A DNA stretch of 64,000 nt from NCBI RefSeq assembly GCF_001677475.2, contig NZ_CP015229.1; one strand, written 5' to 3'. The notes beneath the pieces were generated by a model. It made no database searches. It saw only the letters and a list, made by a program, of their open reading frames with translations, and was not told the DNA's origin. Origin of the DNA: Escherichia coli. GTDB taxonomy: Bacteria; Pseudomonadota; Gammaproteobacteria; Enterobacterales; Enterobacteriaceae. The translations under genes and the position numbers were made by a program. Positions within the stretch are counted from its first letter, which is position 1, and every line of letters starts with the position of its first letter. This document shows positions 1 through 971 of this stretch, in pieces.

Positions 1-67
1 TTATTGTAAAAGTGGGGGTATTGCATAGCAGGGTCAAGTCTGACATTCCCGAGTAATTTGGTCAACT

Positions 68-94
68 ATTTACTTGACTGATTTAGTCAGGTAT
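68..94 (-). promoter_or_regulatory. IscR type-1-like operator motif in the presumed iscR promoter region (iscR lies beyond the window start)
   Basis: Minus-strand read ATACCTGACTAAATCAGTCAAGTAAAT fits the IscR type-1 consensus ATASYYGACTRWWWYAGTCRRSTAT; located downstream of the trmJ stop. Confidence 0.4.
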
Positions 95-127
95 TTAACC
101 TTCAGTGCCATTTTACTATCGCGGTAT

Positions 128-228
128 TTGTACCCATTGTCGGATGCGGCGTGAACGCTTTATCCGACCTGAGGCTCTGTGCACTGCAGGCCTGATAAGA
201 CGCGTTAAGCGTCGCATCAGGCAACCAC
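128..228. repeat. REP (repetitive extragenic palindromic) units
   Basis: GC-rich imperfect palindromes of the CGGATGCGGCGTGAACGC / GCCTGATGCGACGC type immediately 3' of trmJ. Confidence 0.5.
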
Positions 229-230
229 TA

Positions 231-971
231 TTATTCGGCCTTATTACCTTTATTCTGCTGCTCTATAGAAGCCAGAATCCCGCGCAGGATATTCAATTCC
301 TGGCTTTCCGGGCGCGCACGGGTAAACAGACGGCGCAATTTATTCATCACCTGCCCCGGATGGTTTTCACGAATAAAACCGGTTGCCAGCAGCGTTTGTT
401 CCAGATGACCATAAAAACGCTCCAGATCATCGACCAGCGGATACGGCGTCTCTTCATGCTCGACCTGCTCACCATTTTCCTGAGTTGCCAGCCAGGCCAT
501 GCGCACTTCATAGGCAATAACCTGAACCGCCATCGCCAGATTCAGCGAACTGTATTCCGGGTTAGCGGCAATCGCGACATGATAATGGCATTTCTGCAAC
601 TCTTCATTGGTCAAGCCGACGCGCTCGCGACCAAAAACCAGCGCCACCGGGGTATTTGCCGCTTCAGCGACGCTTTTCAGACCGCATTCGCGCGGGTCGA
701 GCATCGGCCACGGCAGCGTGCGGGAGCGTGCGCTGGTGCCCACCACCAGGCTACAACCGGCTAACGCTTCGTCGAGCGTATCGACGATGTGAGCATTACC
801 AATCACATCGCTGGCCCCTGCTGCCAAGGCAATCGCCTGGGAGTCAGGTTTCACCAGTGGATTAACCAGCCACAGATTGGTTAATCCCATTGTTTTCATG
901 GCACGGGCAACAGAACCCATATTGCCGGTGTGTGACGTCTCCACCAGCACAATTCGAATATTTTGCAGCAT
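231..971 (-). CDS. trmJ: tRNA (cytidine/uridine-2'-O-)-methyltransferase TrmJ (SpoU/TrmH family)
   Basis: 246-aa ORF recognised as TrmJ; position upstream of suhB matches K-12 gene order. Confidence 0.9.

Follow-up and report, generated by a model that had tools for sequence, protein, structure and literature searches.

Tandem IscR Type-1 Operators and a REP Pair Between trmJ and iscR in an Escherichia coli-like Genome

What does the non-coding end of this stretch of enterobacterial DNA contain, and does it connect the tRNA methyltransferase gene trmJ to the regulation of iron–sulfur (Fe-S) cluster supply? The question is raised by positions 1–230 of the window (the whole stretch of DNA analysed here, 64 kb in length), where an IscR-operator-like motif and REP palindromes had been noticed next to trmJ. 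The reading preferred here is that this region represents the known iscR promoter (PiscR), with a REP pair, tandem type-1 operators and IscR autoregulation. A probability of roughly 95% is assigned to this explanation, for which sequence matches, orthology, position and conservation were obtained in the present analysis, and binding and repression were taken from the literature.

The Intergenic Region, Its REP Elements, and the Read-Through Question

The following features delimit the region and its repeats:

231..971, minus strand: trmJ coding sequence (tRNA Cm32/Um32 methyltransferase), from the list of open reading frames and the RefSeq annotation of matching genomes
186..222, minus strand: REP of the Z-type, GCCTGATGCGACGC...GCGTCTTATCAGGCCTGC, with 1 mismatch to the REP pattern and 0 expected by chance
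139..168, plus strand: REP of the Y-type in the opposite orientation, with 0 mismatches to the Y-type pattern
1..29, minus strand: first ~29 nt of the predicted iscR 5' UTR, from alignment to E. coli genomes with an annotated iscR

The trmJ gene ends with a TAA stop codon at 233..231, and its product is identical to K-12 TrmJ in all 246 of 246 amino acids. The first kilobase of the window was matched over at least 80% of its length in 5,423 of 5,426 complete E. coli genomes, always at trmJ. In strains 2012C-4221, TW10828, and K-12, iscR is the next annotated gene, followed by iscS, iscU, and iscA, and alignment to these three genomes placed the iscR ATG 39 nt past window position 1. Read on the minus strand, window 1–230 is the trmJ–iscR intergenic region of an E. 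coli-like genome, and iscR itself probably follows just beyond the window edge, judging from the homologous genomes. The initial annotation had proposed that the window begins inside the iscR promoter and had suggested checking whether the sequence upstream encodes iscR. This is the case in 2012C-4221, TW10828, and K-12, and the assignment to the iscR control region held. The exact starting point has to be revised: because the ATG lies 39 nt past position 1 in the related genomes, the window would start in the iscR 5' UTR, at about +29, and the whole promoter lies within it.

Two further observations concern the surroundings of the locus. The part of the iscR 5' UTR located 4–20 nt beyond position 1 contains a GC hairpin, CCCCGGGCAGGGG, that Enterobacteriaceae have kept. 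Read on the other strand, the hairpin resembles the stem of a terminator, with TTTTTATTGT after it; the tail of TTTTTATTGT corresponds to window 1–7 on the plus strand. Over the first 25 kb (window 1–25000), the best identity among the 5,426 complete E. coli genomes was 98.0%, so that no close relative was found among them, and the gene order in this part is as in E. coli (suhB, yfhR, csiE, hcaT, the hca genes, the yph genes, and glyA). For the first 3.5 kb, the best identity was 99.2%, compared with 93.8% to E. albertii.

The block of REP palindromes described in the initial annotation was confirmed and resolved into the Z-type element at 186–222 and the Y-type element at 139–168, which are separated by a linker of 17 nt. 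Both are imperfect palindromes that are also able to pair with each other, and both are multi-copy. The Y-type pattern occurs three times in the window (0 expected), and the median number of places with the 97-nt REP stretch was at least 40 in an E. coli genome. The same stretch gave sub-threshold matches to the Rfam family naRNA4 (36.8 and 35.3 bits), which we take to be REP-derived. Consensus palindrome, many extragenic copies, and an inverted pair with variable tandem number were all found, and the two inverted REPs form one ordinary BIME unit. The number of such units in the trmJ–iscR spacer differs between genomes, with three in tandem in K-12 and one in the window and in 2012C-4221, and the spacer of TW10828 contains a different GC-rich palindromic element.

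As further observations, the spacer (97–135 and 132–228) appears as a polymorphic landing place for repeats, and the 34 nt between the REP and the first operator carry 7 differences from E. coli, far above the level in the flanking genes. The Z-type REP, whose stem is the first one after the gene, starts only 8 nt after the trmJ stop codon (window 222–233, minus strand). Liang, Rudd and Deutscher reportedly described in 2015 that a REP no more than ~15 nt away from a stop codon may stall ribosomes during termination, with reduced expression of the gene that precedes it.

At the 3' end of the trmJ mRNA, the REP pair would form stable hairpins, and this bears on the proposal, also made in the initial annotation, that read-through from trmJ is tied to Fe-S cluster regulation. 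According to this idea, trmJ transcription would pass the REP hairpins into iscR, and either isc expression or a roadblock formed by the IscR-bound operators would couple the modification of tRNA with Fe-S homeostasis. After trmJ, the minus strand of window 1–230 gave no predicted intrinsic terminator, and the REP hairpins there are not followed by a U tract; the corresponding strand of the trmJ–iscR spacer in K. pneumoniae and S. enterica diarizonae likewise gave none, so some read-through is possible; the gene order suhB–trmJ–iscR is, in addition, conserved in enterics. However, iscR has its own strong and fully autoregulated promoter, and a PiscR-lacZ fusion alone reproduces isc regulation. 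The REP/BIME hairpins are stable (a predicted fold of −52 kcal/mol with z = −2.8 for the 145 nt of RNA in the trmJ 3' region), and elements of the BIME type are known to dampen transcription and to define the 3' ends of mRNAs. The polymorphism of the spacer, with one or three BIME units or another element, also argues against a tuned coupling device. As far as the available parts of the two supplements go, a Term-seq study (PMC7815308) gives a 3' end inside trmJ and none in the spacer, and SMRT-Cappable-seq data mention neither trmJ nor iscR. A literature search on the two genes yielded no report of their co-transcription. Such a coupling is therefore considered improbable, and the link from trmJ read-through to Fe-S regulation is unsupported.

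The trmJ-internal 3' end is an observation of its own. In the portion of the E. coli Term-seq supplement (PMC7815308) that was available, it is a very strong RNA 3' end at K-12 position 2663263(−), 60 nt into the trmJ reading frame. It maps to window position ~911 on the minus strand, and a 29-nt palindrome is located just downstream, at 859–887.

Two Tandem Operators and the Layout of the iscR Promoter

Four features make up the proposed promoter region:

70..94, minus strand: predicted IscR type-1 operator, site A of PiscR, ATACCTGACTAAATCAGTCAAGTAA, with 1 mismatch to the consensus ATASYYGACTRWWWYAGTCRRSTAT
45..69, minus strand: predicted IscR type-1 operator, site B of PiscR, ATAGTTGACCAAATTACTCGGGAAT, with 3 mismatches to the consensus ATASYYGACTRWWWYAGTCRRSTAT
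60..65, minus strand: putative −35 hexamer TTGACC of PiscR, inside site B, from reading of the sequence
37..42, minus strand: putative −10 hexamer CAGACT of PiscR, from reading of the sequence, with a spacer of 17 nt

The motif that had been described as fitting the IscR type-1 consensus is contained in the 27-mer ATACCTGACTAAATCAGTCAAGTAAAT at 94..68 on the minus strand, the first 25 nt of which (94..70) are ATACCTGACTAAATCAGTCAAGTAA. Compared with the 25-bp consensus ATASYYGACTRWWWYAGTCRRSTAT quoted from PMC6599224, it shows a single mismatch, a grade of match for which the chance expectation in 64 kb is about 1e-5. The description was correct, and the motif scan proposed as its check returned a strong match and not a poor score. 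A match of this grade was seen in 0 of 100 shuffles. With the base composition of the window, 9e-6 matches with up to 1 mismatch and 4e-3 with up to 3 mismatches are expected by chance on both strands of the 64 kb, and sites A and B are the only places in the window with up to 5 mismatches. As a positive control, the same type-1 scan was applied to K-12, where it recovered sites at two genes that, like iscR, are repressed by holo-IscR: one just upstream of nfuA (2 mismatches) and one upstream of erpA (5 mismatches).

The single motif of the initial annotation was incomplete, as a second type-1 site lies in tandem at 45–69 and overlaps the −35 hexamer. Site B directly abuts site A on its downstream side and is located 83 nt from the iscR ATG, a distance taken from homologous genomes. 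Independently of the consensus scan, a repeat finder reported sites A and B as a direct repeat with a spacing of 25 nt. Site B corresponds to the published 30-mer iscRB, AAATAGTTGACCATTTTACTCGGGAATGTC, an oligonucleotide used in fluorescence anisotropy binding assays with [2Fe-2S]-IscR (Banerjee et al. 2025, PMC12594620); the oligonucleotide differs by 1 base from the K-12 genome and by 2 from the window. Since site B is iscRB, the motif noted earlier is the adjacent upstream site A, the K-12 orthologue of which is identical in 24 of 25 positions. The match to the consensus with its conserved AT-rich ends, the location at the iscR promoter, and the orthology to a bound site were all found, and, at the level of sequence comparison, the two sites are predicted to be the IscR type-1 operators of PiscR, orthologous to the known E. 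coli sites. The type-1 sites A and B of E. coli PiscR were reportedly described by Schwartz in 2001 and by Giel in 2006 and 2013.

The arrangement was followed across species with a degenerate tandem-site pattern (21 specified bases) in one genome per species, which gave 64 loci, or 65 together with K-12. The 64 loci belong mostly to Enterobacteriaceae and also to Aeromonas, Amphritea, Corallincola, and related marine gammaproteobacteria. An IscR N-terminus (M[RK]L[TS]xKGRYA) was found within 400 nt downstream in 62 of the 65, and one further locus was truncated. Leaving aside the columns that the pattern itself fixes, the conserved stretch begins immediately upstream of site A and includes the −10 hexamer and the first ~25 transcribed bases; farther than ~20 nt upstream of site A, the loci show no conservation.

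These data also bear on the possibility that site A is an AT-rich palindrome that arose by chance, or a hairpin, and binds no protein. Site A is indeed palindromic, and a terminator scan in K. pneumoniae flagged its equivalent on the opposite strand. However, the small number of matches expected by chance (~1e-5 per window), the orthology of site A to a characterised operator, and the retention of the A/B tandem upstream of iscR in 62 of 65 loci leave this explanation a negligible probability, and it is effectively refuted.

Site A of E. coli is said, from the work of Giel and co-workers in 2013, to extend from −65 to −41 and site B from −40 to −16. Sites in these positions place +1 at about window 29, the −35 hexamer at 65..60, and the −10 hexamer at 42..37. 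On the basis of these coordinates and of the parallel in P. aeruginosa, the iscR transcription start site (TSS) is probably located at about window 27–29. The putative −10 hexamer CAGACT is weak, with a 3/6 match to TATAAT, and is invariant or nearly so across Enterobacteriaceae. A sigma-70 promoter scan of the region did not flag PiscR because of this weak hexamer, and the miss was therefore rejected as an argument against the promoter. It was also considered whether the conserved TGCTATGCAA at 21–30 might be an extended −10 element, an assignment at odds with the literature, in which site B covers the −35 hexamer and the spacer. A sigma-54 reading of TGGCAC at 105–110 was ruled out, as there is no GC at the −12 position.

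With this layout, site A (94..70) would lie upstream of the −35 hexamer, and site B (69..45) would cover the −35 hexamer and the spacer. As long as the supply of Fe-S clusters is sufficient, [2Fe-2S]-IscR bound to sites A and B would block RNA polymerase. Scarcity or oxidation of the clusters would deprive IscR of its affinity for type-1 sites and derepress the operon, so that repression of PiscR by IscR would close a negative feedback loop on Fe-S supply. Repression of PiscR that depends on [2Fe-2S]-IscR and type-1 sites, and derepression upon cluster loss or oxidation, have been described (PMC12594620). An arrangement of two sites, one of them over the core promoter, is described in PMC6599224, according to which E. 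coli IscR binds its two PiscR sites independently and there is, in addition, a minor site C that lacks conservation; this site was not located here.

Over the stretch that runs from site A to the window edge at position 1, the window and K-12 agree at 92 of 94 bases, and the same two differences were found in comparison with 2012C-4221. Position 6 of site A (window 89) is T instead of the C of K-12, and position 13 of site B (window 57) is A instead of T. A core of 61 nt (window 40–100) was matched in 5,411 of the 5,426 complete E. coli genomes; none of these was identical, and 5,410 fell into the 95–99% identity band. Among the matches listed, all but one had 2 mismatches, the exception being TW10828 with 1. 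The pair T89 and A57 occurs in 0 of the 5,411 matching genomes, TW10828 having T89 only. Both substitutions lie at degenerate positions of the consensus, Y at position 6 of site A and W at position 13 of site B, which is why sites A (1) and B (3) have the same numbers of mismatches as the K-12 sites.

In the set of 64 other species and K-12, T was found at position 6 of site A in 61 of 65 loci and A at position 13 of site B in 15 of 65. The exact site A of the window is also present in two Citrobacter genomes, and nine other species share its exact site B, among them K. pneumoniae, several Raoultella, and E. albertii. As the positions are degenerate and the states common in other enterics, T89 and A57 are both taken to be neutral, which we infer from comparison of the sequences. 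That the two together might shift the set-point of IscR would be a weaker variant of the idea of a second regulatory input, which is treated in the following section. Given that the operator region is essentially invariant over ~5,400 E. coli genomes yet has two substitutions here, this lineage may be of interest to Fe-S specialists.

A Marbox-Like Block Beside Site A

One further feature adjoins the operators:

93..111, minus strand: marbox-like block ATGGCACTGAAGGTTAAAT, with 19 of 19 positions matching AYNGCACNNWNNRYYAAAY, overlapping site A by 2 nt

The block has the same orientation as iscR, and its centre lies at about −73 from the proposed TSS. For the marbox consensus, we take AYnGCACnnWnnRYYAAAY as given by Martin et al. 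in 1999, which is highly degenerate. Positions 93–111 are the only perfect match to it in the 64 kb, with 0.03 expected. To the ChIP-seq-derived motif gcactaattgctaaa of PMC5684230, 11 of 15 positions match, as counted by eye. At the same offset in the 65 loci (64 other species and K-12), 32 have 0 mismatches and 21 have 1, that is, at most 1 mismatch in 53 of 65. The mean entropy of the marbox columns is 1.35 bits at the N positions versus 0.56 at the constrained positions, and 37 of the 6188 possible choices of five columns have an entropy equal to or higher than that of the N positions. The 20 nt upstream of the block are unconserved, and the block is absent from the non-enteric loci of the set.

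These properties suggested that 93–111 might be a site for an activator of the MarA/SoxS/Rob/RamA type, or for a similar factor, that modulates isc transcription in Enterobacteriaceae. The perfect 19/19 match, unique in 64 kb where 0.03 are expected, speaks for such a role, as does the conservation in enterics with variation concentrated at the N positions. A centre at about −73 is, moreover, a common position for a marbox, and authors working on K. pneumoniae had, independently, suggested that SoxS binds at the corresponding position. However, the consensus is highly degenerate, and the block faces forward, opposite to class I sites so far from the TSS. According to the class I rule, marboxes are in reverse orientation 53–73 bp upstream of the TSS (PMC10268841); consensus and position of the block fit this class, and its orientation does not.

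Functional data speak against a strong SoxS effect. The published induction of isc by paraquat is SoxRS-independent, and PMS raises PiscR-lacZ only 1.5–1.7-fold in a delta-iscR strain, a rise that the authors call minor. In the available parts of ChIP-seq work on MarA (E. coli) and on MarA, SoxS, Rob, and RamA (Salmonella), iscR is not mentioned among the targets, and, likewise within the portions of published work that were accessible, neither binding of a regulator to a marbox at iscR nor regulation through one is reported. A role of 93–111 as an activator site is therefore regarded as doubtful, with a modest chance of being correct. If the block were functional, it would provide a second transcriptional input to the Enterobacteriaceae isc operon beside IscR, so far uncharacterised; this is rated as unlikely. 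As the published data argue against a strong effect of SoxS, the conservation of 93–111 is left unexplained, and a pattern of marbox-like conservation next to site A that existing functional data do not account for may be worth the attention of Fe-S specialists.

Comparison With Known Systems

Both the IscR autoregulatory operators of isc and the REP/BIME elements belong to the textbook picture of E. coli and carry little weight as a discovery: the tandem IscR sites and the REP pair were correctly identified here and represent already known biology. A full-text search of the literature for the operator sequences gave no match. The earlier reading from the sequence alone was right about the identity of the motif, missed the second operator and the promoter layout, and over-reached with the read-through coupling.

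Among known marbox sites and the block at 93–111, the consensus and the position at about −73 are alike, and the block differs by its forward orientation. The REP pair shares with enterobacterial REP/BIME elements the imperfect Y/Z palindromes of ~35 bp, the arrangement as inverted pairs, and the extragenic location just after a stop codon, as well as multiple copies and a tandem number that varies between strains. The Y-type REP of the window has GTCGGAT in place of the more usual GCCGGAT, and is otherwise not distinctive.

In P. aeruginosa, PiscR has, like the window, a pair of neighbouring type-1 sites immediately upstream of the TSS (PMC6599224). The promoter-proximal site (ATAGTTGACC...) carries the −35 hexamer there, as site B does here. 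In contrast, site A of P. aeruginosa is more degenerate, and binding is stepwise or cooperative and not independent (PMC6599224); REP elements are absent from that promoter, and the upstream gene context is different. A close counterpart is PiscR of E. coli K-12, which has the same locus, gene order, and two abutting 25-bp sites, and the same −35 and −10 hexamers. It differs from the window by one substitution per operator (window 89 and 57) and by three BIME units instead of one.
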